A stretch of DNA of 64,000 bases from Acutalibacteraceae bacterium. GTDB taxonomy: Bacteria > Bacillota > Clostridia > Oscillospirales > Acutalibacteraceae. The stretch's first letter is position 1. Each line of letters opens with the position of its first letter. A model generated the notes under the pieces. That model did no database searches. It was not told where the DNA came from and was given only the letters and a program-made list of their open reading frames with translations. The stretch is from positions 292 through 64,291 of the forward strand of contig JAZUID010000013.1 of NCBI GenBank assembly GCA_045642065.1, in the 5' to 3' direction. Of the stretch, positions 11,401 to 63,143 are shown in pieces. Both the position numbers and the translations under genes were made by a program.

Positions 11401-11484
11401 ACAAATTATATCACTAAAGCAAATTAATTGCAATACTTTAGATTAAAAAATATTAATATTAACAATTGAAAAGGAGAGAAATTT

Positions 11485-18930: not shown

Positions 18931-19284
18931 TATTAAATGCTTCCTTTCTGTTTTTAGTATTATTGCCTTCTGTAAAGCAAAAAATACAAAAAGTTCAAAA
19001 AATATTCATAAAAAGAAAACAGTTTAATAAAATTTACCCGTTATTATATATAATGTACATTAAAGGAAAACCGCAAGCCTTTTAATGTATGTTTTCGTAT
19101 GAACGGAAACCTCTCCTTAAACCCCTAAAACAAAAAAGTTCCTTAAAAACATTCGTTGTTTTAAGGGGCTTTTTTGTTTTTGTTAAAACTTAACCTTTTT
19201 GCTTGATTTTTAAAGCGTCTTGTGTTATTATGTTATGGCAATAATAGGTGCACTATCTCTATTTATATTAAGGTGGAGTTTTAT

Positions 19285-21288
19285 ATGGAAAAAGCCGCGG
19301 CAGGTATAACGGTCTTTAATCCGAATATTGACAGGCTTAAGCAAAACATAGAAAGCATTTACCCACAGGTAGAAAAGGTTTATATTATTGACAATCATTC
19401 GGACAATATTGACTTTATTCGCCCGTTAGCGCAAATAAGCGATAACATAGTGCTTGTTGAAAACTGTGAAAACTACGGCATAGCAACAGCGCTTAACCAA
19501 ATGTGCAAGCTGGCTCTCAGAGATGGGTTTGAGTGGATATTAACCCTCGACCAAGATTCTATTGCCGAGCCCGAGTTAATTGAAAAGTATTCGGAAGTAA
19601 CCGACAGAACGGATGTTGCTATTGTAACGCCATATATTGATGATGAAAATGAAGCGGATATTGTAAAGTCGTCAATCGAAAACCGGTACGAAGCGGTACA
19701 CAGGTGCTACACTTCGGCAAGCTTTATGCGTCTTTCGGTTTGGTACGAGGTCGGCGGTTTTGATGAACGCATGTTTATTGACTGCGTTGATTTTGATTAT
19801 TGCACAACCGTTGAAGAGCACGGGTATATTATTTTAAGAGATAATCTCGCCAAGATAAAGCATATGTTAGGTGTTGCAAAGGAAGTTCGCTTCTTTATGC
19901 CTATCGGTCGCTTTTTCGGAATTAAAAAATTAAAAAAACCGTTTTATACATATAATCATTCTCCGCTTCGCACATATTATTATGCGCGCAACATAAGGTA
20001 TTATATGTTTAAGCACAAAGACTTTATAAATATGTTTACCGAAAGACGTGTTTATTTGCAATGGCTTGTTTTAAAAATCGGTTTTGAAGAAGACAAAATT
20101 GCAAAAATCAAGGCAATATTAAAAGCAAAAAAAGATGCAAAAATACTTATTAAAGAATTCAAAAACTCAAAAGGGGAGTCCGAGTTAATGAGAGAACATA
20201 AAAACGTAAGTGAGCGCGTAAGCAGGTTTAAATTAAGCGGTACCGTAACATATTGTGAGCCTTACGGTAACGGTCACATCAACGACACTTATTTAGTTGT
20301 TATGGATAAGGGCGAAGGTGTTACAAAACGCTACATTTTACAAGCTCTTAACAAAACCGTTTTTCCGCATCCTGAAGAGGTAATTGAAAATATTGAAAGA
20401 GTAACTTCTTTCTTAAAATCAAAAACCGACGGTACAAACGGTGTTTTAAGGTTGGTTACCGCGCGTGACGGCGGAAATTTTGTTATTGACGATGAAGGCG
20501 AATATTGGAGAATGTATAACTTCATCGAAAATTCCATTTGTATTGACATTCCCGAAACACCGGCAGATTTTTATGAATCCGGCTTTGGCTTCGGTAATTT
20601 CCAAAGCAAGCTTTGCGATTTTCCGGCAGAGGTTTTGCACGAAACCATTCGTGATTTCCACAACACACCAAAGCGTTATAACGACTTCCTTAATGCCGTT
20701 AACGAAAATGCTTCGGGCAGAGCAAATACCGCCCAAAAGGAAATCGAATTTGTTAAGGCAAGGGCCGATTTCTATCCGATACTGATGGATGCCTGCAAAG
20801 AAGGAAAGCTTCCTTTAAGAGTTACACATAATGATACAAAGCTTAATAACGTTTTGTTGGATGAAAAAACAAGAAAAGCTCTTTGCGTAATCGACCTTGA
20901 TACTATCATGCCGGGCTTCTCGGTAACCGATTTCGGCGACTCTATTCGCTTTGGCGCTTCTACTGCCGCCGAAGATGAAAAGGATTTGGATAAGGTTAGT
21001 TTAAGCATGGAAATGTTTAAAGCTTATACCGACGGCTTCTTAAAAGGTTGCGACGGCCGTCTTACCGACCAAGAAATTATGCTTTTACCCGAAGGCGCTA
21101 AAATGATGACGGTTGAATGCGGTATGCGATTCTTAGCTGACTATATAGCAGGCGATACATATTTCAGAACGGCTTACAAAGAGCACAATTTAGTCAGATG
21201 TCGCACACAGTTTAAGCTGGTAGAAGAAATGGAAGCCCATTGGGATGAAATGAAAGCTATCGTTAAAGAATATTGCAAGGAGAAATAA
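19285..21288 (+). CDS. Fusion protein: GT2 (rhamnosyltransferase-like) glycosyltransferase + APH-fold anomeric sugar kinase-like domain
   Basis: The N-domain has VFNPN...YIIDNHSDN...LTLDQDS (GT2 DxD region). From about aa 310 come YGNGHINDTYLV, HNDTKLNNVLLD (HxDxxxxN catalytic loop) and VIDLDT, as in N-acetylhexosamine-1-kinase/MTR-kinase-type phosphotransferases. The frame is continuous. The ATG at 19285 has an AAGGTGGAG RBS. Confidence 0.65.
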   Translation: MEKAAAGITVFNPNIDRLKQNIESIYPQVEKVYIIDNHSDNIDFIRPLAQISDNIVLVENCENYGIATALNQMCKLALRDGFEWILTLDQDSIAEPELIEKYSEVTDRTDVAIVTPYIDDENEADIVKSSIENRYEAVHRCYTSASFMRLSVWYEVGGFDERMFIDCVDFDYCTTVEEHGYIILRDNLAKIKHMLGVAKEVRFFMPIGRFFGIKKLKKPFYTYNHSPLRTYYYARNIRYYMFKHKDFINMFTERRVYLQWLVLKIGFEEDKIAKIKAILKAKKDAKILIKEFKNSKGESELMREHKNVSERVSRFKLSGTVTYCEPYGNGHINDTYLVVMDKGEGVTKRYILQALNKTVFPHPEEVIENIERVTSFLKSKTDGTNGVLRLVTARDGGNFVIDDEGEYWRMYNFIENSICIDIPETPADFYESGFGFGNFQSKLCDFPAEVLHETIRDFHNTPKRYNDFLNAVNENASGRANTAQKEIEFVKARADFYPILMDACKEGKLPLRVTHNDTKLNNVLLDEKTRKALCVIDLDTIMPGFSVTDFGDSIRFGASTAAEDEKDLDKVSLSMEMFKAYTDGFLKGCDGRLTDQEIMLLPEGAKMMTVECGMRFLADYIAGDTYFRTAYKEHNLVRCRTQFKLVEEMEAHWDEMKAIVKEYCKEK

Positions 21289-45175: not shown

Positions 45176-46558
45176 ATGGAAAATAACAACAATTCTTTTG
45201 AAGAACAAGAAAATATTTCCGAGTTCGAGGATATTGTGAGCGACAGCGCTTTTGTTACAGGTAACGGCAAAAAGTACCGCAAAAAGAAGCGTGGCATTAA
45301 AAGACTGTTTGAAAGAATCGGTTTTTGGTGGTACAGCCTTAAAAAATGGCAAAAACAAACGATAATAACCGTTACATCGGTTCTTCTTGTTTTTGCAATG
45401 CTTATCGGCGCTTTCTTTATTGTATTTAACTATAATTACAATAACATCACGGGCGACCCCGATGACTTGGGCTTCGAAAATGTAATCAACAAAAAAATAA
45501 TAAATATTGCTTTATTCGGCATCGACTCGCGCGACCCGAAATCCTTCAAAGGCCTTTCGGACAGTATTATGGTTATGAGCCTTAATACCGAAACAAAGAC
45601 GGTTAAGATTATTTCGATAATGAGGGACAGTTTAGTACCAATCGAGCAAAACGGAAAAACCGTTTACAGCAAAATCACAACCGCCTATTCGCGCGGCGGC
45701 CCTGAGCTTGCAATTAAAACCTTAAACCAAAATTTCGGGCTTGATATTTCAGAATATGCCACCGTTAATTTTTATGGCATGACAGATATTATTGATGCCG
45801 TTGGCGGTATTGATGTTGAACTTTCCAAGGGCGAAATTAATGTTATGGGATATGAAGACGGCCACTCGGTTAACTTTGGTATTAACGGTATGATTTGCGA
45901 GCAATGCGAATATATGGAAATTGATCCGGAGCCGTATTATATCAGCTCTGCCGGCAAGCAACATCTAAACGGTGTTCAAGCCGTTGCCTACGCACGAATA
46001 AGACACGCCGCTAACATTGACGGCACAAACAATGACTATGGCCGTACCGACCGTCAGCGTTATGTTATGGAGCAGCTCTTTAATAAGGCCGTTAAGATGA
46101 AAAGCAGCCGTTATATCAAACTTGCAAAGGCACTTATTCCTTGCAGTGAAACTTCACTTTCTTATAAAGAAATCATGGGTCTTGCAACCAACATATTGCT
46201 GAAATCACCGGAATTTTTGCAAACAAGAATTCCCTTTACCGAGTATCAAATGGAATCAAAGTCAGTTAAGGGTGCAGGCTCTTGCATTTACTATGACTTA
46301 AATTTTGCAAAAAAGATTTTGCATGCTTTTATTTATGATAATATAACACCCGAAGACTACATTGCACAAAACGGCATTGAAAAGCACGACTGGTACGGTA
46401 ATCGAAACGCCACAACACAAAGTGTGACTTCAAGCACTTATAACGAAGAGCCAAGAAGTCACACAACCACAAGCGAGGACGCTTATTCTTCTGTCTATAC
46501 ATCAAGTGAAGACACTTCGAGTGAAGACACTTCAAGTGAAGAGGGTAACGAAGAATGA
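45176..46558 (+). CDS. LytR-CpsA-Psr (LCP) family cell-envelope phosphotransferase
   Basis: N-terminal TM segment, then LFGIDSRD...SDSIMVMSLN...SIMRDS and ARIRH, the LCP core motifs. The C-terminus is S/E/D/T-rich with a 15-bp tandem repeat (SSEDT x3). Confidence 0.8.
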   Translation: MENNNNSFEEQENISEFEDIVSDSAFVTGNGKKYRKKKRGIKRLFERIGFWWYSLKKWQKQTIITVTSVLLVFAMLIGAFFIVFNYNYNNITGDPDDLGFENVINKKIINIALFGIDSRDPKSFKGLSDSIMVMSLNTETKTVKIISIMRDSLVPIEQNGKTVYSKITTAYSRGGPELAIKTLNQNFGLDISEYATVNFYGMTDIIDAVGGIDVELSKGEINVMGYEDGHSVNFGINGMICEQCEYMEIDPEPYYISSAGKQHLNGVQAVAYARIRHAANIDGTNNDYGRTDRQRYVMEQLFNKAVKMKSSRYIKLAKALIPCSETSLSYKEIMGLATNILLKSPEFLQTRIPFTEYQMESKSVKGAGSCIYYDLNFAKKILHAFIYDNITPEDYIAQNGIEKHDWYGNRNATTQSVTSSTYNEEPRSHTTTSEDAYSSVYTSSEDTSSEDTSSEEGNEE

Positions 46559-46734
46559 AAAGCACCATTTGCGAAAACTGCGCTAATTACGTTTATGATG
46601 AAGAATATGACGAATATGTTTGTGATGCATATTTAGATGAAGATGATATGGAAAGGTTTTTATCTTCTGACAATTCCGCCTGCCCTTACTTTAACGGGTA
46701 TGACGAATACGGCATTGTCAGAAAGCAAAATTAG
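46555..46734 (+). CDS. Small acidic Cys-containing protein (59 aa, below the ORF-track cut-off)
   Basis: My translation is MKSTICENCANYVYDEEYDEYVCDAYLDEDDMERFLSSDNSACPYFNGYDEYGIVRKQN. The start overlaps the LCP stop (ATGA). CxxC...C...C suggests a small zinc-binding fold. Confidence 0.5.
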   Translation: MKSTICENCANYVYDEEYDEYVCDAYLDEDDMERFLSSDNSACPYFNGYDEYGIVRKQN

Positions 46735-46744
46735 GCGGTGAAAA

Positions 46745-47572
46745 ATGCTTTATATTTATTTAATAATCAGCGCGGCGGTCGTGCCGGTTTTAAACAACTT
46801 TTTGCCGATTTTAAAACAAAGTTATTCTTATTGGTTAGTACCGTTAATTTTTGTCGGCTGTTTTGCTTCGCTCATAATTTTGCACTTTTTGTTCTTTGCC
46901 GTTTGCGTTTTTTTGGTAAATATGAATTCGAAACAGCAAAAAGGCTCTAAATTTTACCGTGCTTTGGTATCGGCAACTTTGCCGATAGGCTTTAAACTTA
47001 TGGGTATTGAAGTTTTGGCAACGGGGCTTGAAAAGGTCCCTGACGACACAAGATTTTTGCTTGTTTGCAATCATCAATTCGACTTTGACCCTGCGATTAT
47101 TCTTTCGGCTTTACCCGAAAGCGAGCTTGCTTTTGTCGCTAAAAAGGAAGTTTACAGGGACCTTAAATTTGTGGCACGGGTTATGCACGCCTTAAACTGT
47201 TTGCCGATTGACAGAGAAAATAACAGGGAAGCGGTTAAGACAATTTTAAAAGCCACAAATATTATTAAAGAGGATAAGAACTCTATCGCAATTTTTCCCG
47301 AAGGCTATACCTCTAAAACATGCGAGCTTTTGCCGATGCGCAATGGCGCTTTTAAAATAGCAACTAAGGCTAAGGTGCCGATTGTCGTTTGTGTTATCGA
47401 CAAAACAAGGGAAATACCGAAAAGCATGTTCAGAAGAAAAATCACAATACCGTTTAGCGTTTTAGATGTCATTTATCCCGAAGATTATGCCGATAAAACT
47501 ACCACCGAAATAGGTAATGCAGTAACAGAAAAAATGCAAAAAGGTTTAGATTTAATAAGAAAAAACAATTAA
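46745..47572 (+). CDS. plsC: 1-acyl-sn-glycerol-3-phosphate acyltransferase
   Basis: N-terminal TM segments, the HX4D motif (CNHQFDFD) and the FPEGYTS motif. Confidence 0.8.
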   Translation: MLYIYLIISAAVVPVLNNFLPILKQSYSYWLVPLIFVGCFASLIILHFLFFAVCVFLVNMNSKQQKGSKFYRALVSATLPIGFKLMGIEVLATGLEKVPDDTRFLLVCNHQFDFDPAIILSALPESELAFVAKKEVYRDLKFVARVMHALNCLPIDRENNREAVKTILKATNIIKEDKNSIAIFPEGYTSKTCELLPMRNGAFKIATKAKVPIVVCVIDKTREIPKSMFRRKITIPFSVLDVIYPEDYADKTTTEIGNAVTEKMQKGLDLIRKNN

Positions 47573-47630
47573 GCAATATAACAAAAGAACTCTGCCTTTT
47601 ACTGAAAGGCAGAGTTCTTTATTTTAGTTA

Positions 47631-50234
47631 TTATTCTTCTTTATTTTCGCCGCCGAAAAGGTTGTCGTCTATTTTAAAACCGCCTTCAAAACCGCTTTCA
47701 ATATGGGGGATGATAATTTCATCGTCATCATCTAAAATGCTTTTTCGGCTTGGATTAGAAAGTGCTTCATCTTCTTCGGATTCTTGAGTTTTCCATTGTT
47801 CTAAAAGAATATCGCCTTCGGGGTAAACCTCTTCTGAGGGATGATTCTTTTTATAGATTAAGCAAACAAGCATATAAACAATAAATACTGCTACACCGCC
47901 GGCGGTTGTTTTAAGACCGAGCGAGAGGCCGGGAGTTTTATAACTGAATTCAATGGTGCTGTCGCCCTTAGGAACTAAAACTGCCATAAAGCCGACATTG
48001 ACGCGCTCAATCTTTGCGGGCTTGCCGTTTACTGTTGCCGACCAGCCTTCGTCATACGGAACCGAGAAGAAAACAAGGTTCTTTTTCTCGCGTTTTACTT
48101 TTGCCGTAAATCCGTTTTTGGTGGTATTGAAATAATAAGCCGAAGTTTTTGAGAGTTCTTTGCAATCAGCTTTATATGCTTCTTGTGTTAAAGATAATTT
48201 TGAGTTATTAGCACCCGACTTTTTGAGGTCTTCAATATTATCCAAAATGCCCGAATACTCTTTAATTTGTCGGTCACTTAAAGCGATGGCTTTAAGCATT
48301 AAAGCACCGCGGTCGCTTTGCTTATAGTTGTCGCAAAAGCTTTTACTCATATAATAGTCATAAGAGAAGCCGTAGGGAATATAACATTCGTTTTGGTAAA
48401 TGTAATATCCGCCGCTTGTTGTTACATATTTGTAGTAAGGCATTTTTGTGTCGCCTGAATTTTCAACAAAGCTTTCACCACCGGTGCGGTTAAGCAAATA
48501 TTTTACCGAAAGCAACGGTCTTATAGCATATTGATTAACTTCGGGGCGACTGCCGACATCACGGGTAACGCCGATGTAGGTGTAAAAATCAATTATAGAA
48601 CTCGGCACAACCGAATGGAATGCGTTAATACCTGCAAGCCCCAATGTCATTGAGGTATTATCGGCGCAGGAATAAGTATCCACCCTGTAATTATAAGATT
48701 TTTCAAGTGCAACATCGCCTTCGATAAGCTGGTCAATAACAACAGATTTGGGGTCGAAAGAGTGACTTCTGCCTTCATAGATAAATAATCCGCCATATAC
48801 TATTGAGGCGATGCAAACACACGCAACCGAAGCTGTAAAGAAGGCTTTTCTGTTTCGCTTTAAAAGTCCTAATAATAGGTAAAGAACGAAGAGAGAAATT
48901 ATTGCAATAAGGCAGGCGGCAATAAACCGAAGGGTGTAGGTATTGCCTGCATCTTGAGTATAAAGGCCAAACGAAATGTTACCGTCTTCATCGGTTTGCG
49001 GGAACAAACCGATAACTAAGGTAAATGCAAAGGTTATGCCTAAAACCCATTTAAATCCGCTTGACCAGTCGGCTGAGCTGTCTTCCGCCAGCATAACCGT
49101 AGCCAAAGCCATCATAAGTATCGGCATATAGAACCAACGCGCATAATAGGCGTTGTTGAATGCATAAAAAGAGCTATTTAAAATCGGAACAAGAGCCATA
49201 AACGCGCTAATACCGATTAAACGTTTCAGCCAGTTACCTTTTCGGTTGGCAAACCACGCGAAGACACCGACCATACTGAATATAGGCATCCAACCGCCAA
49301 GGCTCGACCACTTAACATCGGCACCGGGGAAGAAGACCGGACGCGCCGGAATGTCGGGCGGGAAGAAGAAACACTCAATAACATTAAGATAAATTTGCTC
49401 TTTACCGTACATTATTGAGTTCCAACCGAGTGTAATCTCACTAATACGGCCGTTTCCGATAATAGCGAGTATTGATGGTATCAGCAAGAAGCAAGCTAAG
49501 GATAAACCGATAACCGCTTCTAAAACCAAAATTAAAAATCTTGAAAATTTAGGTTTAATTGCATGGGAAAAGAGTCGTACAAAGAAGTAAATTATCGAGA
49601 AAACTACCATGCCGAAGAAGAAGAAATAGTTAACAACGGCACAAAGGGCAACCGTTATTGCCACAACACCGCGTTTGTTTTCGGTTATAAGCATTTCAAT
49701 AGCCAAAAGCAAAAGCGGGAAAACGATTATCGCTTCGTGGAAGTGGTTGAAGAAAATGTTGTAAATTGAAAATCCCGAAAAGGCATAGAGCAAAGCGCCT
49801 AACCTTGCGGCTTCGGGTGTTTTTGTGAAACGGCGTATGTAAAGGTAGGCCGTAAAAGCAGCGCAACCGAATTTTAAAATAAGCAACGGTCCCATTAGGT
49901 AGGGTACGACAGAATTAGGGAAAGGAATAGTAAGCCAGAAAAACGGACTGCCTAAAAGATAAAAACTGTAAGAGCCGACAAAATTGGCACCCAAGTCGGT
50001 AAGCCAGTTCCAACCCATTGTACCGTTTCTGATTGCATTATGGCATTGCATATAAAACGGAATTTGCTGAACATTAAAATCCCCATAAAAAATAAAATAA
50101 CCTTTGCCCAGAATAATAAAAGGCAAGAAAAAAGCCGTCGCAGTTATTATCGCAATAATAAAGGTTGAAAGCTTTTTTTCCTTATTAGGGCAAAGAAGTG
50201 TGGCTTTATTATAAGAAAAACCCATAACAGCCAA
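47631..50234 (-). CDS. YfhO-family polytopic membrane protein (putative cell-wall polymer glycosyltransferase)
   Basis: 867 aa. About 13 N-terminal TM helices, a large extracytoplasmic domain, a C-terminal TM and an acidic tail match the YfhO architecture as I remember it. Confidence 0.55.
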   Translation of the reverse strand: MAVMGFSYNKATLLCPNKEKKLSTFIIAIITATAFFLPFIILGKGYFIFYGDFNVQQIPFYMQCHNAIRNGTMGWNWLTDLGANFVGSYSFYLLGSPFFWLTIPFPNSVVPYLMGPLLILKFGCAAFTAYLYIRRFTKTPEAARLGALLYAFSGFSIYNIFFNHFHEAIIVFPLLLLAIEMLITENKRGVVAITVALCAVVNYFFFFGMVVFSIIYFFVRLFSHAIKPKFSRFLILVLEAVIGLSLACFLLIPSILAIIGNGRISEITLGWNSIMYGKEQIYLNVIECFFFPPDIPARPVFFPGADVKWSSLGGWMPIFSMVGVFAWFANRKGNWLKRLIGISAFMALVPILNSSFYAFNNAYYARWFYMPILMMALATVMLAEDSSADWSSGFKWVLGITFAFTLVIGLFPQTDEDGNISFGLYTQDAGNTYTLRFIAACLIAIISLFVLYLLLGLLKRNRKAFFTASVACVCIASIVYGGLFIYEGRSHSFDPKSVVIDQLIEGDVALEKSYNYRVDTYSCADNTSMTLGLAGINAFHSVVPSSIIDFYTYIGVTRDVGSRPEVNQYAIRPLLSVKYLLNRTGGESFVENSGDTKMPYYKYVTTSGGYYIYQNECYIPYGFSYDYYMSKSFCDNYKQSDRGALMLKAIALSDRQIKEYSGILDNIEDLKKSGANNSKLSLTQEAYKADCKELSKTSAYYFNTTKNGFTAKVKREKKNLVFFSVPYDEGWSATVNGKPAKIERVNVGFMAVLVPKGDSTIEFSYKTPGLSLGLKTTAGGVAVFIVYMLVCLIYKKNHPSEEVYPEGDILLEQWKTQESEEDEALSNPSRKSILDDDDEIIIPHIESGFEGGFKIDDNLFGGENKEE

Positions 50235-52627: not shown

Positions 52628-52894
52628 TTCTTTTTCCTCCTGAGGTTTTCCCTCCATCCCGTTGCACTTTGGGGAAACTGCGCTTTTAAGCACAACACCT
52701 GCCCAACAAAACGGAATGTGTGTAATATTTACCAATGTTTTTACATTAGCCTAAAAATTATATCATAAAGAGCGGTGCTTTGCAAGCATTTTTTGAAGAA
52801 AAATAACAAAAAATCCGCACTTTTTACGGTGCGGATATATAGTGTGTTTTAGGGGGATTTTAACCACTAAATAATGTGTATATTTATATGTATA

Positions 52895-53683
52895 TTAAAC
52901 GCCGAATAAACATTTTGCGTTTCTATAAGCTTGGTTTAGCACTTCTTCCGTGCTAATGCCCTTAATCAGTGCTATCTTTTCGGCGGTTAGATATATCATA
53001 CCGCTGTGGCAAAGCTTACCTCTAAACGGCTCGGGCGCTAAATACGGGCAGTCGGTTTCAAGCAAAAAACGGTCTAACGGAACCTTCTTTATAACTTCGG
53101 GCAAGCGCCTTGCATTTTTAAAGGTGGCAACACCGCCGATACCGATATACATACCGAGTTTCAGTATTTCTTCGGCCATTTCTTCGCTACCCGAAAAGCA
53201 ATGCACAACGCCCTTTGGCTTGGTTTCTTTTAAAATTTCAAGAGTGTCGGCATGGGCGTCGCGGTCATGCACAATTATAGGCAAATGGGCCATCTTTGAA
53301 AGTTCAATTTGACCTTTAAAAAGTTCAATTTGTTCTTTTTTGTTTTCTTCGTTAAAGTTGTAATCAAGACCGATTTCACCGATAGCAACAACGCCTTTTT
53401 CCTTTGTAAGAGGTAAAATTTCGGTTGCCGTGTCACCGCTGTCAATATTTTCGGGGTGAACGCCGACGGCGGCGAAAACCCCGTTAAACTTGTTAGCAAA
53501 GCTAATTGCGGTTTTACTTGACAACGCGTCACACCCGCAGGTTATAACACCCTTAACGCCGTAAGAATTAAGATTACTTAAATAATCTTCATAAATGCCT
53601 TTAAATCGGGCATCGTCATAGTGCGCGTGGGTGTCGAAAATAAGCGGCTTCGATAAAGGTGGGGAAAACAGTATTTCTTCCAT
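52895..53683 (-). CDS. tatD: TatD-family metal-dependent hydrolase/DNase
   Basis: IFDTHAHYD, GEIGLDY, HDRDAH, HCFSG and ETDCPYL. The start overlaps the metG stop (TAATG). Confidence 0.9.
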   Translation of the reverse strand: MEEILFSPPLSKPLIFDTHAHYDDARFKGIYEDYLSNLNSYGVKGVITCGCDALSSKTAISFANKFNGVFAAVGVHPENIDSGDTATEILPLTKEKGVVAIGEIGLDYNFNEENKKEQIELFKGQIELSKMAHLPIIVHDRDAHADTLEILKETKPKGVVHCFSGSEEMAEEILKLGMYIGIGGVATFKNARRLPEVIKKVPLDRFLLETDCPYLAPEPFRGKLCHSGMIYLTAEKIALIKGISTEEVLNQAYRNAKCLFGV

Positions 53684-55599
53684 TATCTGACCTTGCACCC
53701 TGCCGGAATATTGTCGGCAAAAATAACCTTAATGTCATCATCTTTGCAGTCTGCCGCAAGAATCATACCGTTAGACTCAACACCGCAAAGCTTGGCAGGT
53801 TTAAGGTTGGAAACCAAAATTACTGTGTGACCTACCAACTCTTCGGGTTTATAGTATTTGGCAATGCCCGATGCTACCGTACGGGGTGTATCGGTGCCGT
53901 CATTTAGTGTCAATTTTAACAGCTTCTTGGCTTTCGGCACGGGCTCGCAGGCGGTAACGGTTGCGGTTGTCAGCTCAACCTTGCAAAAATCTTCAATGCC
54001 GATTTGGCTGACGGTTGCAACATTTTCGGCATTTGCTTTTTTGGCCTTTTCGGCTTCCTCTGCTAATTCTTTTAAGGTAGCTTCCATATCAATTCTTGCA
54101 AACAAAGGCTTTGCTTCACCGACGGTAAAGCTGTCGGTTGTGCCGAATTCGTTACTGCTGTTTGCCGTGCAAAGCTGAGCCAAAATGCTGTCGGCACTTT
54201 GCGGAATAATCGGCTTTAACATATTAGCAAGTAATCTAATACATTCAAGTAAGTTATAAAGGACATCATTAAGGCGCGACCTTTGTTCTTCATCTTTGGC
54301 AAGCGCCCAAGGCATAGTTTCGTCAATATACTTATTGCACCTTCTTGCAAGGTCCATAACGGCGTTAACCGCATCGGCATTACGGTATTCGTCCATAAGT
54401 CTTGTAAAGTCGGCAAAGCTCTTTTTAGCGGTGGCTAAAAGGTCTTTGTCAAGCTCATTAAACTCTTTTGATTTGCTGACGGTACCGCCGAAGTATTTGT
54501 TAGTCATGGCGATACTTCTGTTTACAAGATTGCCGAGTGTATTGGCAAGGTCGGTGTTAAATTTAGTAATAAAACTTTCGTAGGTAATAGTGCCGTCTTG
54601 CGAGAAAGGAATTTCAGAAAGAAGGTAGTAACGAACTGCGTCAATACCGAAGCGGTGCGCTAAATCGTCGGCGTAAATAACATTGCCTTTTGACTTTGAC
54701 ATTTTGTCTTCGCCGACCAGTACCCATGGGTGACCTAAAACCTGTTTTGGTAAAGGCTCGCCTAACGCCATAAGAATAATCGGCCAGTAGATAGTGTGAA
54801 AACGGACAATATCTTTACCGATAACATGAAGGTCAGCAGGCCAAAGCTTTTTATATTGCTCGCTACTGCCATCAGGGTCATAGCCGATACCGGTAATGTA
54901 GTTGGAAAGCGCATCAAGCCAAACATAAACAACATGCTTGTCATCAAAATCAACAGGTATGCCCCATTTAAAAGACGTTCTTGAAACGCAAAGATCGTTA
55001 AGACCCGGCTTTAAGAAGTTGTTAATCATTTCGTTCTTTCTTGACTCCGGCTTAATAAAGTCGGGCTCATTCTCCAAGAACTCTAAAAGTCTTGCTTGAT
55101 ATTTGCTTAATTTTAAGAAATATGCTTCTTCCTTAGCGTCGGTAACTTCTCTTCCGCAGTCGGGGCATTTGCCGTCAACTAATTGCGAAGGGGTAAAGAA
55201 GGATTCGCAAGGCACGCAATATTTGCCTTCGTAATGGCCTTTATAAATATCGCCTTGTTCGTAAAGCTTTTTGAATATTTTTTGAACGGTTTTAACATGG
55301 TCTTCATCGGTTGTGCGAATAAACTTGTCATAGCTTGTGTTAAGGCTGTCCCAAACACCGCGAATTTCCGAAGAAACGCCGTCAACATATTCTTTCGGCG
55401 TAACACCCGCTTTATTCGCATATTCTTCTATCTTTTGACCGTGCTCATCAGACCCTGTCATAAGAAAAACGTCGTAACCTTGACCGCGTTTATAACGAGC
55501 GATAGCATCGGCTAAAACGATGTCATAAGCATTGCCGATGTGCGGTTTTCTCGAAGTGTAGGCGATGGCGGTGGTAATATAAAACTTCTTGTTTTGCAT
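53683..55599 (-). CDS. metG: Methionine--tRNA ligase with C-terminal tRNA-binding (Trbp111/EMAP-like) domain
   Basis: HIGH-type PHIGNAYD, KMSKS (DKMSKSKGN), a CxxC...CPDC zinc knuckle, and the C-terminal GIEDFCKVEL...LCGVESNGMILAA. Confidence 0.95.
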   Translation of the reverse strand: MQNKKFYITTAIAYTSRKPHIGNAYDIVLADAIARYKRGQGYDVFLMTGSDEHGQKIEEYANKAGVTPKEYVDGVSSEIRGVWDSLNTSYDKFIRTTDEDHVKTVQKIFKKLYEQGDIYKGHYEGKYCVPCESFFTPSQLVDGKCPDCGREVTDAKEEAYFLKLSKYQARLLEFLENEPDFIKPESRKNEMINNFLKPGLNDLCVSRTSFKWGIPVDFDDKHVVYVWLDALSNYITGIGYDPDGSSEQYKKLWPADLHVIGKDIVRFHTIYWPIILMALGEPLPKQVLGHPWVLVGEDKMSKSKGNVIYADDLAHRFGIDAVRYYLLSEIPFSQDGTITYESFITKFNTDLANTLGNLVNRSIAMTNKYFGGTVSKSKEFNELDKDLLATAKKSFADFTRLMDEYRNADAVNAVMDLARRCNKYIDETMPWALAKDEEQRSRLNDVLYNLLECIRLLANMLKPIIPQSADSILAQLCTANSSNEFGTTDSFTVGEAKPLFARIDMEATLKELAEEAEKAKKANAENVATVSQIGIEDFCKVELTTATVTACEPVPKAKKLLKLTLNDGTDTPRTVASGIAKYYKPEELVGHTVILVSNLKPAKLCGVESNGMILAADCKDDDIKVIFADNIPAGCKVR

Positions 55600-55617: not shown

Positions 55618-58443
55618 CTACGGTTTTTCTATTAAGAAAAGCAGGTATGAAATCACCGTAGAAACAATACTGAATAATAAAACGAAACTACTGCTTAAAA
55701 GCTCGCCCGAGCCCGAGAACGGGGCATATAGGAACATAAGTATTCCGGCGCAAAGGGCAAGTATGTATGTAACGGTTAAAAGCAGGTTTGATTTGCGGAT
55801 TTTAGCCGAGCAGTTTACAAGTGAAGTAAGACCCGTCGGATTGCCCTTATAAAGACCGGGGGCAGAAGTTTCGGCAACGGGGTGAACGGCATTTTTATAC
55901 ATATTGCTGCCCGCAAAACGCATAACCTTAACCGAGTCTTCGTAAAGACCTAAATAGTCGCAGAGCATCTCTTCGGTTAAGTTGGGGTCACAGCTGTTAA
56001 CCAAAACGGTAATACCGCTTGCGGTAACCTTTTTAAGCTCGCGCGCAACATCGGGGTCAACACCGTATTGAACAATAAGCAAAGCATAGGCTTCACCGTC
56101 GCTTGCAACATAAATGGGGAAGAAGCCGTTTCTTAAAATTTTGTAATCGGTTTCAACCGGCGGTGCGGAAATCCCATGAGATTCAAGCAAGGTACGGTTG
56201 CCGATAAGTAAAAGTTTATCATCAACCCAACCTGAAATACCGCGCGTTTCTTCATACTTAACGCTGTCAACCTTAGGCTCGGGCGAAGTACTGTTAAGCG
56301 TGCTGACAATCCGGCTGAATACACCGTCAAGCGGTGAGTCGATATATTTGGTAAGCGCCGCAGCGCGAATGATAGTATCGTCAATACTGTTTTCACCTAA
56401 AACGTGCATATTGTGTAAGGTGATGGTACCCGACGGGAAAATGTCGCTCGAGTTAAGAATAACGGCGTTAGCGGCTTCAATTTGAGCGGCGCCCGATTTT
56501 CCGATAACGGCGGCACCTTTTTTCTTTAATTTTTTGTTTGCGGCAAAAAGCGGCAGGCTGTCAATAAAGAAAAGTGTGGGTAAAGCCGAAAAGCACAAAA
56601 CCGAAGCAAATGTTAAATAACCCGAATAAGAATTATTCGTAACGCTTGCGTTGACAAACGCAAAAACAACAGCTAAAAACAGTGTAACGGCGGTTATAAG
56701 AATTTGCTTTCCGCCTAAGAAAGTGCCGTATTCCGAATATTTCATAAAGTCAAGAATTTGACCGGTTTTTTGAGGTGCCGCAATAAGTGCTTCACCCTCA
56801 ACAGCGTCACCTGCCATAGCATTAGTAACGGCAGGCTCGTTAATAAGCTTAACGGCCCTTTTTTGGCTTATGGCCGAAATCGACTTGAAGGTTGAAAGCA
56901 TTTGCGAAGCATACATAAATTTGCCGAGTGAACGGAAACACAGTATAAATTGCAAAAGCAAAAGAATATCAATATTGGGCTCACCCGAATTAAAACAGGT
57001 GGCGGTGAAAACGCCGGTACCGAGAACTGCCAACAAAGCCGAAATATCACCTGTGGCTTTTTTCTTAACAAGGTCCTTAACTGATTTAAAAATATCGATA
57101 TTTGCAATTACACAAAGAAATGCAAAGACGGCGCAAACACCCATACAAGGTGTCGGATAGGCAACCATAAAATCATATAAAACCGGAATTTTAAAGGTCG
57201 CGGTCAAGAGCAGCAAAACAAGTGATGCGGAAAATTGTAAAAATCCGTTACGGTTTTTTACCGAGAGCATTCGCAAAATGCGTTTTAGGTCGCCGGGGCC
57301 TTCGTATTCGGTAGAAGGTGTAAACTCATCAAAATCGTTTACTTCAAGCTTAACGGTTTCGGGCTCAAATTTTTCTTCGTGTGGGAGTTCGGTGGCTAAA
57401 AGTTCGCCGGTTAAATCAATTTTTCTTGTGCTGTGGGAAACAACAACGCGTTCAACATCATCACCCTTTTTAATGGGTGTGAAGCGGATGGTTTCGCCAA
57501 GCTCGGCTGTGGCTTCAATAGGATTAGGGGCAACCTTTTCTGCCACTAAGGAAATGTTGTCAATATCCGAAATGTCGGGCAAGCTTGTTTGAACTTCGGT
57601 CACCGGTACGGATTCTTCCTTGACGGGTAAAGGTTTTTCCTCATTTTTATCGACTTTTGTCGGCGTTTCTGCAAGGGTGGTGGCATAACGGCCCAAATTA
57701 TCAAAAGTAACCTCATACTTTTTAGCCAACTGTTCGACAATCTTATCGCTGTCGGCATTTAAAATATTTTCCACACTTTCGAGTGTGTATGACGGCTTTT
57801 CTTCGGCAGCATTGTTACCCGTGTCGTCAATAATATAAGGCATACATTTTTCTAAAAGTGAAGGCTCATCACTCTTTTCTTGCTTGGGCGCCTTTTCTTC
57901 TGAATTAACTTCGATCTTATAATCATCTAAAATCTTTTCTACAAAAGCGGCGGCTTCGGTTTTTTCTTTATTTTCTGCAACCGATTCGTAAGCCGGATTT
58001 TCTTGACCGTTCTTTTCGTCAACCACTTTTTCTGTATTAACGTTAAGGTTTTCTTCAACACTCGCGATTATATCGTCAATAGAAAAGTTGATTTCGGCTT
58101 CTTCCTTTTTTGATTCTAAAACGATAGGGTAGTCAGATTCCTTAACAAGCTCATCAACGGGCAAGGATTCACTTTTTTCTTCTTTAACAGGCACCGTTTT
58201 TTCTGCCGGCGGTGCTTCGGCGACAACTCCGCGCGCGGAATTACGCATGCGCGCCTTCAACGATTCAAGCGGATTATTGCCAGACTCGGCGGTTTGCTTT
58301 GTTTCGCCACCGGCAATTTCGTCTGCGGTAAGCGCATGGTTAGGCATAATTTTCTCGTGCTCCGAAAGATTAAAAATTAAATCTTCGGCTTCTAATTCTT
58401 CTAAGATGTCGTTATTGTCTGACTTCTTTGAAAACAATCCCAT
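55618..58443 (-). CDS. Large membrane protein: acidic low-complexity N-terminal ~390 aa + P1B-ATPase-like membrane/HAD core lacking catalytic motifs
   Basis: By-eye collinearity with CopA-type ATPases: ALLAVLGTG, LGKFMYASQ...ISQKRAVKL, then AAVIGKSGAAQIEAANAVILNSSDIFPSGTITL where GILIKGG.ALE....VVFDKTGTLT is expected. It continues with GWVDDKLLLIGNRTLLESHGI and YVASDGEAYALLIVQYGVDPDVARELKKVTASGITVLVNSCDPNLTEE where MLTGD is expected. The start overlaps the rlmB stop (TAATG), and metG follows 18 nt downstream. Confidence 0.45.
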   Translation of the reverse strand: MGLFSKKSDNNDILEELEAEDLIFNLSEHEKIMPNHALTADEIAGGETKQTAESGNNPLESLKARMRNSARGVVAEAPPAEKTVPVKEEKSESLPVDELVKESDYPIVLESKKEEAEINFSIDDIIASVEENLNVNTEKVVDEKNGQENPAYESVAENKEKTEAAAFVEKILDDYKIEVNSEEKAPKQEKSDEPSLLEKCMPYIIDDTGNNAAEEKPSYTLESVENILNADSDKIVEQLAKKYEVTFDNLGRYATTLAETPTKVDKNEEKPLPVKEESVPVTEVQTSLPDISDIDNISLVAEKVAPNPIEATAELGETIRFTPIKKGDDVERVVVSHSTRKIDLTGELLATELPHEEKFEPETVKLEVNDFDEFTPSTEYEGPGDLKRILRMLSVKNRNGFLQFSASLVLLLLTATFKIPVLYDFMVAYPTPCMGVCAVFAFLCVIANIDIFKSVKDLVKKKATGDISALLAVLGTGVFTATCFNSGEPNIDILLLLQFILCFRSLGKFMYASQMLSTFKSISAISQKRAVKLINEPAVTNAMAGDAVEGEALIAAPQKTGQILDFMKYSEYGTFLGGKQILITAVTLFLAVVFAFVNASVTNNSYSGYLTFASVLCFSALPTLFFIDSLPLFAANKKLKKKGAAVIGKSGAAQIEAANAVILNSSDIFPSGTITLHNMHVLGENSIDDTIIRAAALTKYIDSPLDGVFSRIVSTLNSTSPEPKVDSVKYEETRGISGWVDDKLLLIGNRTLLESHGISAPPVETDYKILRNGFFPIYVASDGEAYALLIVQYGVDPDVARELKKVTASGITVLVNSCDPNLTEEMLCDYLGLYEDSVKVMRFAGSNMYKNAVHPVAETSAPGLYKGNPTGLTSLVNCSAKIRKSNLLLTVTYILALCAGILMFLYAPFSGSGELLSSSFVLLFSIVSTVISYLLFLIEKP

Positions 58444-59198
58444 TAACTTCTCCTCTTTCGTACAACTTCATACATAAGAATGCCGGCTGCAACCGATGCG
58501 TTCAGCGAATTTATTTTGCCGAGCATAGGTAAACTTACAATACCGTCGCAACGTTTTGCGGTTAAAGCGCCGATTCCGTGTCCCTCATTCCCGATAACGA
58601 TGGCGCAGGGCACATTAAAATCAACTTCTTCATAGTCGGTGCCGTCCATATCCGCACCAAACACCCAAACACCCTGCTTTTTAAGGTCTTCAATAGTGTT
58701 TGCAATATTTGTAACGCGGGCAACCGACATATATTCAAGCGCACCGCTTGATGCCTTGGCAACCGTAGCGTTAAGAGAGGCGCTTCGGCGTTTCGGAATG
58801 ATGATGCCGTGAACACCGCTTGCTTCTGCCGTACGGATGATAGCACCAAGGTTGTGCGGATCTTCCAACTCGTCGCAAATAATAATAAAAGGCTTTTCGT
58901 TTCTGTCATAAGCGTTTTGCAAAATATCCGAAACTTCGCAATAATTTTGAGTTGCGAACATAACCGCAACGCCTTGATGGTTGGCACCGCCACAATAATA
59001 GTCAAGCTTTTGGGGGCTAATTTCTTTTATCAAAATTCCCTTTGCAGAGCATTTTGCGATTATTTCGGTGACACTGCCGCCCGAAACACCGTGTGCCACA
59101 AACAAACGGTCAATCTCACGGCCCGAACGTATTGCTTCAAGCACCGAATTGCGACCGCAAATTATATTGTTCTGTTTTTCTTCAAAATTGTTTTCCAT
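58443..59198 (-). CDS. rlmB: TrmH/SpoU-family 23S rRNA (guanosine-2'-O)-methyltransferase
   Basis: N-terminal SpoU_sub_bind region (ICGRNSVLEAI), PHNLGAIIRTA, VIGNEGHGI and LNASVAAGILMYE. Confidence 0.85.
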   Translation of the reverse strand: MENNFEEKQNNIICGRNSVLEAIRSGREIDRLFVAHGVSGGSVTEIIAKCSAKGILIKEISPQKLDYYCGGANHQGVAVMFATQNYCEVSDILQNAYDRNEKPFIIICDELEDPHNLGAIIRTAEASGVHGIIIPKRRSASLNATVAKASSGALEYMSVARVTNIANTIEDLKKQGVWVFGADMDGTDYEEVDFNVPCAIVIGNEGHGIGALTAKRCDGIVSLPMLGKINSLNASVAAGILMYEVVRKRRS

Positions 59199-59371
59199 AA
59201 TGTATCCCTTTTAAAGTCATATATAAGACATTATAACATACAATATATAAATTTTAAATAGAAAATTGAAAAATTTTTAAAATTTATTTTTGGAATATAT
59301 TGTATTTCTAATTGCAAACGACAACTATTTGTGGTATAATATAGCAAATATTATCTTGGGGGAAGTTTAAT

Positions 59372-60610
59372 ATGAATTTTTTTGAAGATTTAAAAGATTA
59401 CGATAGCGAAGTAGCGGCGGCTTGCGAAAAAGAATTAAACCGTCAGCGCCATAATATTGAGCTTATCGCTTCTGAAAATATTGTTTCTAAGGGTGTCTTA
59501 TTAGCAGCCGGCGGAATTCTTACAAATAAGTATGCCGAAGGCTACCCCGGCAAGCGCTATTACGGTGGCTGTCAATATGTTGATATTGTTGAAGATATCG
59601 GCAGAGAACGCGCTAAAAAGCTGTTCGGTGCAGAGCATGCCAACCTGCAACCGCATTCGGGTGCAAATGCCAACTTAGCCGTTTTCTTTGCACTTTTAGA
59701 GACGGGTGACACCGTTATGGGTATGAACCTTGCCGAAGGCGGACATTTATCCCACGGCTCACCTGTAAACATTTCGGGTAAATATTTTAATATTGTGCCT
59801 TACGGTGTTAATAAGGATACCGCGTTAATAGATTATGATGAGATGGAAAGAACAGCACTTGAATGCAAACCGAAGCTTTTAGTTGTCGGCGCCAGTGCAT
59901 ATTCGCGCATCATCGACTTTAAGCGTTGCCGTGAAATTGCAGATAAGGTCGGTGCATACCTAATGGTTGATATGGCACATATTGCAGGTCTTGTTGCAGC
60001 CGGCATTCATCCGTCACCGGTGCCTTATGCCGATGTTGTAACAACCACAACACACAAGACTTTGCGCGGTCCGCGTGGCGGTATGATTTTGTGTAAAAAA
60101 GAATTTGCACAAAAAATTGACAAGGCTATTTTCCCCGGCACACAAGGCGGCCCCTTAATGCATATTATTGCCGCCAAAACAGTAGCACTTGGCGAAGCAA
60201 TGACCGACGAATTTAAAGAATATCAAAAACAAATTGTTAAAAATACAGCCGCACTTTGCAAAGCCTTTGACAAAAACGGCATCAAGATGGTTTCGGGCGG
60301 CAGCGATAACCATTTGGTTTTATTGGATTTGCGCGGTACGGGAATTACCGGCAAAGAGCTTGAAAGCCGGCTTGACGAAGTGCATATTACCGCCAACAAA
60401 AATACGATACCCAACGACCCCCAAAGTCCGTTTATTACAAGCGGTTTAAGGCTTGGATCCCCTGCCGTTACTTCACGCGGTTTTAAAGAGCCCCAAATGG
60501 AGCTTATTGCCAGCTGGATTAAGGATATAATGATCGATTTTGAAGGCAATAAAGACCGAATCACAAAAGAAGTTATTGAGCTTTGCGAAAAGTTCCCGAT
60601 TTACGAATAA
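59372..60610 (+). CDS. glyA: Serine hydroxymethyltransferase
   Basis: [11 protein letters not shown], and the PLP-lysine region [23 protein letters not shown]-17-TATAAT promoter lies upstream. Confidence 0.95.
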
Positions 60611-60626
60611 AAGAGGTAAATTTTAT

Positions 60627-61331
60627 ATGTTGCAAATAAACAATCTTACCAAGATTTACGGTGAAAAGAAAGCAGTTGACAATCTTTCAATTCACATCAA
60701 ATCCGGTGAAATATACGGTTTTATCGGTCATAACGGTGCCGGCAAAACAACGACTTTAAAGTCCGCCGTCGGCATTTTAAAGTTTGAGCAAGGTGAGATT
60801 TTCGTAGGCGGTATTTCGATTAAAGAAAACCCGTTGGAATGCAAAAAGCAAATTGCCTACATTCCCGACAACCCCGATTTATATGAGTATATGACCGGCA
60901 TTAAGTATCTTAATTTTGTGGCCGATGTTTACGGTGTTTCTACTGCCGAGCGCCAGTCAAAAATTAAGAAATATGCCGATATGTTTGAAATTTACGGTGA
61001 TTTAGGGCAGTCAATCGCCTCTTACTCACACGGAATGAAGCAAAAATTAGCCATTGTTTCCGCTTGGCTTCATTCACCGAAGCTGATTCTCATGGATGAG
61101 CCGTTTGTTGGGTTAGACCCAAAAGCCGCCCACACCTTAAAGGAAATGATGCGTGAGCATTGCGATAACGGCGGTGCGATTTTCTTCTCCACCCATGTGC
61201 TTGAAGTTGCCGAAAAGCTTTGTGATAAGGTTGCAATTATTAAGGGCGGAAAGCTCATTAAATCAGGTACTATGGAAGAGGTTAAGGGCGACGAATCGTT
61301 AGAGGAAGTTTTCCTTGAATTGGAGGACTAA
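60627..61331 (+). CDS. ABC transporter ATP-binding protein (ABC-2 exporter type)
   Basis: Walker A GHNGAGKTT, signature YSHGMKQK, and Walker B LILMDEPFVGLD. The ATG at 60627 has an AGAGGT RBS. Confidence 0.9.
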   Translation: MLQINNLTKIYGEKKAVDNLSIHIKSGEIYGFIGHNGAGKTTTLKSAVGILKFEQGEIFVGGISIKENPLECKKQIAYIPDNPDLYEYMTGIKYLNFVADVYGVSTAERQSKIKKYADMFEIYGDLGQSIASYSHGMKQKLAIVSAWLHSPKLILMDEPFVGLDPKAAHTLKEMMREHCDNGGAIFFSTHVLEVAEKLCDKVAIIKGGKLIKSGTMEEVKGDESLEEVFLELED

Positions 61332-61334
61332 CCG

Positions 61335-62930
61335 ATGCTTAAAACTTTAATAAAAAAGCAGTTGGCAGAGCTTAACAGAGGCATCTATGTTGACAAAAAA
61401 GGAAAGACACGCTCTAAAAAATCTTCGCTTTTAGTCTTTTTGGCAACCTATGTGTTGTTGTTTTTAATAGCCATCGGCGGTTCTTTTACGGCGGTTAGTA
61501 TTTTACTTGCAAAGCCGTTGGCACCGGCGGGTTACGGCTGGCTTTATTATTTGGTTATGACCGGCGTTGCTCTTGTTTTAGGCGTTTTTTCATCATCCTT
61601 TAACACCTTTGCAAGTCTTTATAACGCGAAGGATAATGAAACACTTCTTGCGATGCCTATTAAAACTTCGGATATTATCCTTTCGCGTATGATCGGCATT
61701 TATATTTTTTCATTGTTCTTTACGGGAATGGTTATGTTGCCGGCAGTTATTGTTTATGCCATTGTCATTAAAAGTGTTTATGCACTTGTTACCGGTTTGA
61801 TTTTCAGCTTTGCAATTACTGTTTTGGTAATGGTGATTTCTTGTATTTTAGGCTATTTTGTTGCAAGAATAAGCAAAATTGTTAAAAACAAAAGCTTTAC
61901 GACCGTTTTGGCCACACTGCTGTTTATCGGTATTTATTATGTGGTTTATTTTAAGGCGCAGGTTGCCATAAGAAATCTTGTAGAAAACTTTGCGACAGTC
62001 GGTAAACAGGTAAAGGACAGCTCATATTTGCTCTACTTTATCGGTAAGTCCGCCACAGGCGATATTATACCGCTTTTAGCGGTTGTGGCAGCAGTTGCAT
62101 TGCTTGCATATTTAATCTATTCCCTAATTGAAAAAAGTTTCATAAAGGTCACTACAACAGCCGACCGCCAAGCACGAAAAGAAGTAAGAAAAGAAAGTAT
62201 GGCGGAAAAAAAGTTAAGCTCAACCTTGTTCGGAAGGGAAGCTTCACGGTTTGTTTCAAGCCCGACATATATGCTTAACTGCGGTTTTGGTGTTTTGCTT
62301 TATTTAGCGCTCGGCATCATTGTCTTAATTAAGGCAAAGGATATTAACAGCGTCGTTTTGTCCTTTAACTTTGTTAATAAATATTTACCGCTTATTGCGT
62401 CGGGGCTTCTTTGCTTAATTTCGGTTATGAATGATATTACGGCACCTTCGGTTTCTATCGAAGGCAAAAGCATTTGGGTTGCTTTATCAATGCCGATTGA
62501 CATTAAAAAAATATTTAAAGCCAAAATTAAGCTCAATATGGTCTTAACCTTAATACCCCTTGCAATTTGTGTTTTTTCACTTTCAATAGCGGTGCCGATT
62601 AAGATTTACAACATAATTTTAATTCTTTTAACGCCGTCAATATTTACTTGGCTTATTGCTAATTTTGGGCTTTTTGCCAATCTTAAATTTCCCAATCTTG
62701 ATTGGGCTAACGAGACGGTTGCAGTAAAGCAGGGTCTGGCACCTGTTATTGCAATTTTCGGCAGTTGGATTTATCTTGCGGCGCTTGCCGGAATTTACAT
62801 TTTGGCACGAAAAGCAATCAGTGTCAGCTTGTTTTTAGTTCTTGCGAATATTTTAAACATTGTAATATCCTTAGCTTTACGCAAATGGATTATGACAAAA
62901 GGCAAAGAAATTTACGAAAATTTAGCATAA
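61335..62930 (+). CDS. Polytopic ABC-transporter-associated permease (unknown substrate)
   Basis: 531 aa with about 12 hydrophobic helices. It starts 4 nt after the ATPase gene and is followed by a strong hairpin (AACCCCACAAC...GTTGTGGGGTTTGTTTTT). Confidence 0.6.
   Translation: MLKTLIKKQLAELNRGIYVDKKGKTRSKKSSLLVFLATYVLLFLIAIGGSFTAVSILLAKPLAPAGYGWLYYLVMTGVALVLGVFSSSFNTFASLYNAKDNETLLAMPIKTSDIILSRMIGIYIFSLFFTGMVMLPAVIVYAIVIKSVYALVTGLIFSFAITVLVMVISCILGYFVARISKIVKNKSFTTVLATLLFIGIYYVVYFKAQVAIRNLVENFATVGKQVKDSSYLLYFIGKSATGDIIPLLAVVAAVALLAYLIYSLIEKSFIKVTTTADRQARKEVRKESMAEKKLSSTLFGREASRFVSSPTYMLNCGFGVLLYLALGIIVLIKAKDINSVVLSFNFVNKYLPLIASGLLCLISVMNDITAPSVSIEGKSIWVALSMPIDIKKIFKAKIKLNMVLTLIPLAICVFSLSIAVPIKIYNIILILLTPSIFTWLIANFGLFANLKFPNLDWANETVAVKQGLAPVIAIFGSWIYLAALAGIYILARKAISVSLFLVLANILNIVISLALRKWIMTKGKEIYENLA

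Positions 62931-63025: not shown

Positions 63026-63143
<118 letters not shown>

Follow-up and report, generated by a model that had tools for sequence, protein, structure and literature searches.

P-type ATPases are defined by a catalytic cycle that passes through a phospho-aspartate. The human endoplasmic reticulum membrane protein TMEM94 (ERMA), for which one structural study detected no ATPase activity, still binds AMPPCP (PMC12134183), and its catalytic status is disputed (PMC13322241). In bacteria, a non-catalytic protein of the HAD superfamily, PcrP (PA2803), binds protein partners (PMC12632274). No non-catalytic P-type ATPase from bacteria is described in the literature searched, subscription-only papers lying outside its scope, and a recent broad review of the superfamily, searched by text, makes no mention of such members (PMC10654040). 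The present analysis concerns a 64,000-nucleotide stretch of DNA from an Acutalibacteraceae bacterium (assembly GCA_045642065.1, contig JAZUID010000013.1, positions 292 to 64,291), referred to below as the window, and one gene within it. This gene, an intact minus-strand open reading frame (ORF) at 55618..58443, encodes a protein of 941 amino acids, here called X. Taken as a whole, X is probably best explained as a pump-derived pseudo-pump, a membrane-anchored platform for binding.

An initial annotation of X, made from the sequence alone, had compared its C-terminal part by eye with CopA-type P1B ATPases, and database searches bear this out. The NCBIfam CopA and P1B models match residues 585-833 (E=1e-8 and 1.5e-7), with scores that lie far below the curated cut-offs (33.7-35 bits against 1316 for CopA, and 30.6 against 346 for ATPase-IB). 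Searched with phmmer against the sequences of the PDB, X finds Legionella CopA (3rfu_A, E=2.7e-8), and a profile built from 57 homologues of 820-950 amino acids, collected by a word-indexed search, matches 3rfu over M4 and the P and N domains with E=7.4e-19. When very diverse members of the family are taken singly, 16 of 17 match the NCBIfam CopA model weakly, the best with E=6e-18. Pfam, including PF00122 and PF00702, gives no match for X, for the 57 relatives or for eight distant long relatives, and returns only sub-threshold noise (XendoU, 0.034; Bac_DNA_binding, 0.23).

The predicted structure agrees with these searches. In the AlphaFold2 model, computed from the 57-sequence alignment, the predicted local distance difference test score (pLDDT) exceeds 90 at about residues 370-941 and falls below 50 for most of residues 1-365. 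The top Foldseek matches of this model in the PDB are all P-type ATPases, aligned over some 620-740 columns; P1B pumps come first (CopA 4bbj, E=2.2e-17, with ATP7B, AfCopA and ZntA), followed by KdpB. Hydropathy gives eight transmembrane (TM) segments, with four short loops free of Lys and Arg, and with Lys or Arg present in the loops predicted to be cytoplasmic, a pattern consistent with P1B pumps, whose topology is N-in MA/MB/M1-M6. The features by which the P-type fold is recognised, eight TM helices and a P domain with an inserted N domain between M4 and M5, are present in the model. That X is a homologue of P1B-type ATPases with the fold of a pump is, in our view, hardly open to doubt. 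From its N-terminus to its C-terminus, X is divided as follows.

57349..58443, minus strand: acidic region predicted to be disordered, residues 1-365 (pLDDT, composition)
57244..57348, minus strand: conserved juxtamembrane segment (E/D-Y...D.K...KR..F) running into TM1, residues 366-400 (alignments; model helix 383-418)
56875..57243, minus strand: four TM helices equivalent to MA, MB, M1 and M2, residues 401-523, with an amphipathic MB' stretch and N448 conserved (hydropathy, model, Foldseek)
56707..56874, minus strand: remnant of the actuator (A) domain without TGE, residues 524-579, 56 amino acids (translation; two strands and short helices in the model)
56521..56706, minus strand: M3 and M4, residues 580-641, with P622 and P631 conserved (HMMER alignments, translation)
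56578-56586, minus strand: A620-L621-P622 at the place of the CPC metal site (HMMER alignment)
55834..56520, minus strand: cytosolic head with P-like and N-like domains, residues 642-870 (alignments, model, conservation)
56440-56454, minus strand: NSSDI at the place of DKTGT (alignment)
55981-55995, minus strand: SCDPN at the place of TGD (alignment)
55621..55833, minus strand: M5 and M6, residues 871-941 (model, hydropathy)

Catalytic and transport motifs were mapped through HMMER alignments to LpCopA, with all coordinates checked by translation; the LpCopA numbering in these alignments reproduces C382-P-C384 and D426, which serves as a check on them. The D426-K-T-G-T of CopA aligns to N664-S-S-D-I668 of X. 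The phosphorylated Asp is thus gone, as the initial annotation had claimed, but the counterpart that it proposed, SDIFPSGT, begins at S666, and the catalytic column is occupied by N664. Similarly, the CPC of CopA (382-384) aligns to A620-L621-P622, so that a proline remains but neither cysteine does; here again the loss of the site stands, while the CFS first set against it (C617-F-S619) lies three residues upstream. The proposed replacement of TGD by SCD was placed correctly, T577-G-D of CopA aligning to S817-C-D819, where only the Asp is kept, inside a family-specific D-[PQ]-N. Between V838-K-V-M841 and M5 there are only about 30 residues in X, compared with about 80 in CopA, implying that the half of the P domain that bears the motif III Lys and GDGxNDxP has been deleted. 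About 50 residues of the P domain are missing relative to CopA, and the reported absence of GDGxNDxP is in this way confirmed. The actuator region, estimated earlier at about 55 residues, measures 56 from M2 to M3 and has no TGE. No CxxC motif or HMA domain is present anywhere in X, as judged by a Pfam scan and by inspection of the sequence, and no YN or MxxSS metal-ligand motif was seen by eye in M5 or M6. The TGE dephosphorylation loop has gone with the reduction of the A domain to a 56-residue stub, and the Mg-binding GDGxND with the deleted half of the P domain. With such a set of motifs, X is very probably unable to carry out P-type catalysis or to transport metal.

Could this be the result of an error in the sequence or of recent decay? 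Relatives with intact motifs, which would have pointed in that direction, were not found: neither DKTG at the site nor GDGxND is seen in any of 287 full-length relatives, and TGE occurs in the actuator region of just two. The motifs were thus lost long ago, and their absence is no error. That X is a decaying pseudogene, a product of faulty assembly or a chance resemblance is likewise of negligible probability, since it is read from an intact ORF of 941 codons, preceded by a Shine-Dalgarno sequence and with its N-terminus conserved, the same state of the motifs is seen in hundreds of independent assemblies, conservation is strong and specific to domains, and the homology searches reach E-values of 1e-17 to 1e-19. 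Sequencing error, recent decay and chance likeness are refuted by the breadth of the family, the motif counts and these E-values. Judged from its sequence, X has the operational marks of a pseudoenzyme: it is homologous to an enzyme family, it lacks the catalytic residues and, by the conservation and breadth of its family, it is kept under purifying selection. Sequence and predicted structure together strongly imply that X is a pseudo-pump, that is, a pseudoenzyme. With the phospho-acceptor Asp, TGE, GDGxND and CPC all absent, we read it as a protein that would act by binding and not by transport.

The family has two conserved motifs of its own, N-x7-[DEQ]-[LI]-F-P-x-G and D-[PQ]-N. Of the 287 members, 284 have N659, and D819 and N821 are nearly invariant. 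In the column of the catalytic Asp the residues found are Ser (90), Asn (66), Asp (60), Thr (27) and others, and in the column of D667 they are Asp (184), Glu (57), Gln (19) and Ser (15). The near-invariance of D819 and N821 and the retention of N659, together with a fold kept at high model confidence, a retained M4 proline and the name of cation-translocating ATPase in some public annotations, would be expected if X were an active but highly divergent P-type pump, or a HAD-type phosphatase, that works through a non-canonical D667 or D819. We think this very unlikely. There is no conserved acidic residue at or beside the phosphorylation site; TGE, the region of the motif III Lys, GDGxND and CPC are all gone; the scores against family models fall far under the curated cut-offs; and conservation in the TM region is low, which an ion-binding core would not show.

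The nucleotide-binding pocket of the N domain has fared differently from the motifs of catalysis and transport. In ATP7B we take this pocket to comprise E1064, H1069, G1099, G1101, I1102, G1149 and N1150, for which the equivalents in LpCopA are presumably E459, H464, G492, G494, V495, G507 and N508. Four of these seven positions are kept in X, as G735, I736, G748 and N749. The earlier statement that every signature is replaced thus holds for catalysis and transport but not necessarily for the binding of a ligand, the N-domain pocket being partly retained.

Support for the pseudo-pump also comes from the way in which conservation is distributed along the protein. Taken as the mean frequency of the top residue in the 57-sequence alignment, it has the following values.

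N-like domain: 0.70
P domain, first part: 0.67
P domain, second part: 0.61
A-domain remnant: 0.59
TM helices: 0.44-0.49
N-terminal region (disordered): 0.32

The invariant residues G735, G738, G748, H756 and P761 all lie within the N-like domain, and family-specific residues of the head that are invariant or nearly so comprise W739, H756, P761 and D819-P-N821. Working pumps conserve the ion site of M4-M6 more than most of their other parts. In X the head is best conserved and the TM helices poorly so, the reverse of the pump pattern, implying that the head is functional and that the membrane part is an anchor. In our reading, X is an integral membrane protein that clearly derives from a P1B pump of Cu(I) type and keeps its architecture, with eight TM helices, N-in, and the head between M4 and M5. 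The poorly conserved TM bundle would hold it in the membrane, and the conserved head would offer a functional surface for a nucleotide-like small ligand or for a protein. The acidic N-terminus, with its short motifs, would recruit or regulate partners at the cytoplasmic face, and synthesis of X would be tied to that of RlmB, encoded immediately upstream, through a common promoter and, often, through translational coupling. We lean somewhat towards this action of X as an anchor and binding platform.

The N-terminal region was described initially as a long acidic tail, probably disordered. Its composition and predicted disorder are as described (residues 1-365 carry a net charge of -42, with 60 Glu and 24 Asp), and the 'tail' lies at the N-terminus of the protein. 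About 120 residues of it (approximately 72-190 of X) form an insertion that is absent from most homologues. Within the region lie short conserved blocks, MGLFSKK (1-7), HALTADEI (36-43), PLESL (58-62), SLLEKCMPYI...PSYTLESV (194-224), ISDID (291-295), TIRFTP (318-323) and T339..D343, two of which, with their variable positions marked, read SLLEKCxPYI…PxYxLESV and TIxFTP. In distant homologues, with N-terminal regions of up to about 1,040 amino acids, M-x-[FLI]-F-S-K-K and HALT-x-EE are found again. The presence of short linear motifs in an acidic linker of variable length suggests a part in the recruitment of partners or in autoregulation.

How widespread is the family? An exhaustive HMMER search with residues 552-941 gives 2,542 clusters at 50% identity with E <= 1e-3, the weakest of which may be genuine P1B pumps; 1,647 of them match at <=1e-10 and 561 at <=1e-30. 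In the best 150 matches, truncated fragments aside, the homologous part is C-terminal in proteins of 800-1,600 amino acids. When one genome is taken per GTDB species, at least 290 species have relatives of X, and the 80 closest loci among these were used to compare gene order. All 80 are from metagenome-assembled genomes (MAGs), labelled Acutalibacteraceae, Oscillospiraceae, Ruminococcaceae or Clostridia, and the sources that are named are gut or faecal samples. The family also includes a second large subfamily (P0057-like, 611 matches; L006/L007, P0315-P0433), which is likewise encoded behind rlmB; DKTG and GDGxND are absent from the 120 members of it examined.

The gene for X lies second in a group of four genes that appears to be transcribed as a unit, with the following elements.

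59230..59258, minus strand: promoter-like site with an extended -10 (TTTAAA-17-TgtTATAAT), 5' of rlmB (a match to the consensus only)
58443..59198, minus strand: rlmB, 23S rRNA (guanosine2251-2'-O)-methyltransferase (TIGR00186, 244.9 bits against a cut-off of 160)
55618..58443, minus strand: X, derived from a P1B ATPase and without catalytic or transport motifs (searches, model)
53683..55599, minus strand: metG, methionine-tRNA ligase, preceded by a GGGAG Shine-Dalgarno sequence (family model, sequence)
52895..53698, minus strand: gene for a hydrolase of the tatD/YchF family, overlapping the end of metG by 16 nucleotides (ORF, family model)
52813..52836, minus strand: hairpin and T-run resembling an intrinsic terminator, 59 nucleotides past tatD (sequence scan)

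The junctions are as they were first read. The TAA stop of rlmB and the ATG of X overlap by one base, as TAATG (…AGGAGAAGTTAATGGGA…), with an AGGAG Shine-Dalgarno sequence within the 3' end of rlmB, 8 nucleotides 5' of the start; the TAG stop of X is followed by 18 nucleotides (TTTAAAGGGAGATATTTT) and then by the ATG of metG. The site at 59230..59258 is probably the start of the rlmB-X-metG-tatD transcript and the hairpin at 52813..52836 probably its end, and the presence of one promoter-like and one terminator-like site suggests a single transcript. T-box leaders are common on the methionyl-tRNA synthetase genes of many Firmicutes. An Rfam scan finds no T-box, riboswitch or other leader in the operon, including the region before metG, and control of metG would thus have to stem from the rlmB promoter. 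X itself ends in K-P followed by the stop codon (55618-55626, minus strand), a [K/R]-Pro ending is found in most relatives, and P941 is kept in 89% of the 57-sequence alignment. Work in Escherichia coli indicates that a C-terminal proline slows the termination of translation.

In relatives of X, rlmB is the constant neighbour. A gene of rlmB type (SpoU_sub_bind and SpoU_methylase domains) lies directly 5' of X, on the same strand, in all ten of the loci that were inspected separately, in which identity to X goes down to 21% and the other neighbours vary. It is also directly upstream in those of the 80 closest loci whose upstream flank is present. The rlmB-X junction overlaps by 1 or 4 nucleotides in 39 of 86 loci, with most of the others no more than 35 nucleotides apart, and the spacer between X and metG is mostly 10-19 nucleotides in the same 86. 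Downstream of X, metG and tatD follow in essentially all of the 80 loci where the contig reaches far enough, so that the order rlmB-X-metG-tatD, the conservation of which was proposed for examination at the outset, is conserved across these species-level loci. Among them, identity is about 80% for RlmB and about 77% for MetG, as against only 40-50% for X. In more distant lineages metG-tatD is not found downstream. The earlier view of a translation-related operon thus applies within the clade of the window, through metG-tatD; beyond it, the constant partner is rlmB. As the downstream genes change while rlmB stays, rlmB-X is the robust linkage.

What does this linkage imply? One reading is that X uses its acidic region and its head to tether RlmB, late 50S precursors or translating ribosomes to the membrane. 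The adjacency of rlmB and X in every lineage examined while other neighbours change, and the frequent overlap of the rlmB stop with the X start, speak for it, as do the translation genes that are often nearby (metG, and in the distant locus L089 an ABC-F ATPase and a pseudouridine synthase); the acidic region, at -42, would perhaps suit basic ribosomal or RNA-binding proteins. Conservation of an operon can, however, be purely regulatory, the RlmB of the window is an ordinary TIGR00186 equivalog without extra domains, and we know of no action of RlmB at the membrane. Some connection of a partner of X with RlmB or ribosome production is speculative and rather unlikely, and so is the tether as formulated here. 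Slightly less likely still is its broadest form, in which the whole family of dead pumps would serve as a membrane scaffold tied to ribosome production, holding RlmB, late 50S particles or translating ribosomes. If true, it would explain the linkage to rlmB across lineages down to 21% identity. Either way, the unbroken association with rlmB is a concrete lead to the function of X.

The genes that replace metG and tatD point elsewhere. A Wzy_C (O-antigen-ligase-like) gene lies directly 3' of X in three separate lineages (L008, 8539-9756; L090, 9510-10655; L093, 8551-9744); the L008 and L090 copies are homologous, with 34% identity, and in L008 the gene is inserted between X and a following metG-tatD. 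In L092 (8187-9689) X is followed by an M23 peptidase gene and an M50-like gene, an arrangement that we take to be reminiscent of spoIVFA-spoIVFB. These neighbours would fit a role for X as a cell-envelope factor, a regulatory or scaffold subunit for the synthesis or remodelling of a polymer, whose TM bundle meets polytopic partners. Neither the window nor any of the 80 closest loci has such neighbours, however; X also has no envelope-related domain, and few of its parts are less conserved than the TM helices. This role, too, seems unlikely. Being absent from these loci, Wzy_C was rejected as a general partner within the clade of the window. Other distant loci have different neighbours again: L089 has a gene for a HAD-type hydrolase besides those for the ABC-F ATPase and the pseudouridine synthase, radical-SAM genes lie downstream of X elsewhere, and in L093 a pair encoding a 12TM_1 permease and an ABC ATPase adjoins rlmB. 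X was also considered as a known defence protein and rejected, PADLOC giving no match.

Several observations weigh against X as a pseudo-pump that acts as a binding platform. Three of the seven pocket positions are replaced (T698 stands for the Glu, S703 for the His and T733 for the first Gly), making nucleotide binding uncertain; T698 and S703 are conserved in the family, while residue 733 is variable. An Asp does stand in the catalytic column in 60 of the 287 members. The second subfamily has the site AF[ED]-D-T-[ED]-IFG, with an invariant Asp one residue past the catalytic column, and may represent an intermediate stage or another kind of chemistry; in some branches, phosphoryl chemistry may persist in a residual or altered form. 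The case for the head as a binding surface is drawn entirely from its conservation. Finally, the adjacency to rlmB may reflect shared expression rather than shared function.

These findings bear on how such proteins are named. Pfam and NCBIfam have no model that covers the family, and its members appear in the sources as 'hypothetical protein', 'cation-translocating P-type ATPase' or 'Cu+-exporting ATPase', all from MAGs; among the named homologues no cultured or studied organism surfaced. P0003, P0252, P0284 and P0293 carry P-type or Cu+-exporting labels yet are without the catalytic and metal-site motifs, and such labels on members of the family are probably over-annotation. Since six of the defining features examined are absent and the nucleotide pocket is only partly kept, X falls outside the P-type ATPase annotation and should not be filed under it. 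The matter has practical weight, as mislabelling as copper ATPases would inflate the copper-resistance capacity predicted for gut metagenomes.

Elsewhere the window contains several features of separate interest. A 616-residue ORF (9583-11433, minus strand) fuses a C5-cytosine DNA methylase (PF00145) to an N6/N4 DNA methylase (PF01555), and a 688-residue ORF (19222-21288, plus strand) combines a family-2 glycosyltransferase with an APH-type phosphotransferase domain. Just downstream of the rlmB operon, at 45176-50234, envelope genes, for a protein of the LCP family, an acyltransferase and an 867-residue membrane protein of the YfhO family, lie beside tsf-rpsB. A polytopic membrane protein of 531 residues without a Pfam match (61335-62930, plus strand) is encoded behind an ABC ATPase gene (60540-61331), and a 5S rRNA gene (63026-63142, minus strand) lies near the edge of the window, where an rRNA operon probably continues past position 64000.

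How, then, does X compare with known systems? With the CopA-type P1B-1 pumps (LpCopA 3RFU/4BBJ; ATP7B, AfCopA, ZntA) it shares the eight-TM topology MA/MB/M1-M6 and the layout of the head, significant sequence homology over M4 and the P and N domains, the M4 proline and the N-domain signature 'G-I/V-x-G ... I-G-N-x-x-L-M'. It differs from them in lacking the Asp of DKTGT, TGE, GDGxND and CPC, in an A domain cut to 56 residues and a P domain short of about 50, in its poorly conserved TM region, and in an acidic disordered region of about 365 residues that stands in place of the HMA metal-binding domains. PcrP, a member of the broad superfamily that includes the P domain, has lost its activity and so provides a precedent for a dead module of HAD type; unlike X it is small and soluble, with no TM or N domain, and as no search made here found it as a homologue of X, the analogy is purely functional. 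TMEM94, which is not among the top 50 Foldseek matches of X, resembles it in its P-type-like architecture, in an M4 broken by proline and in the lack of the TGES dephosphorylation motif. In contrast to X, it is eukaryotic, has ten TM helices and full-size A-, P- and N-like domains, and keeps the Asp (D417). What X adds to these is a large and ancient family of gut Clostridia of Oscillospirales type that appears to have kept the scaffold of a pump after losing both catalysis and the metal site, and that would be a test case for the use of the P-type fold without pumping, comparable to the disputed human TMEM94.

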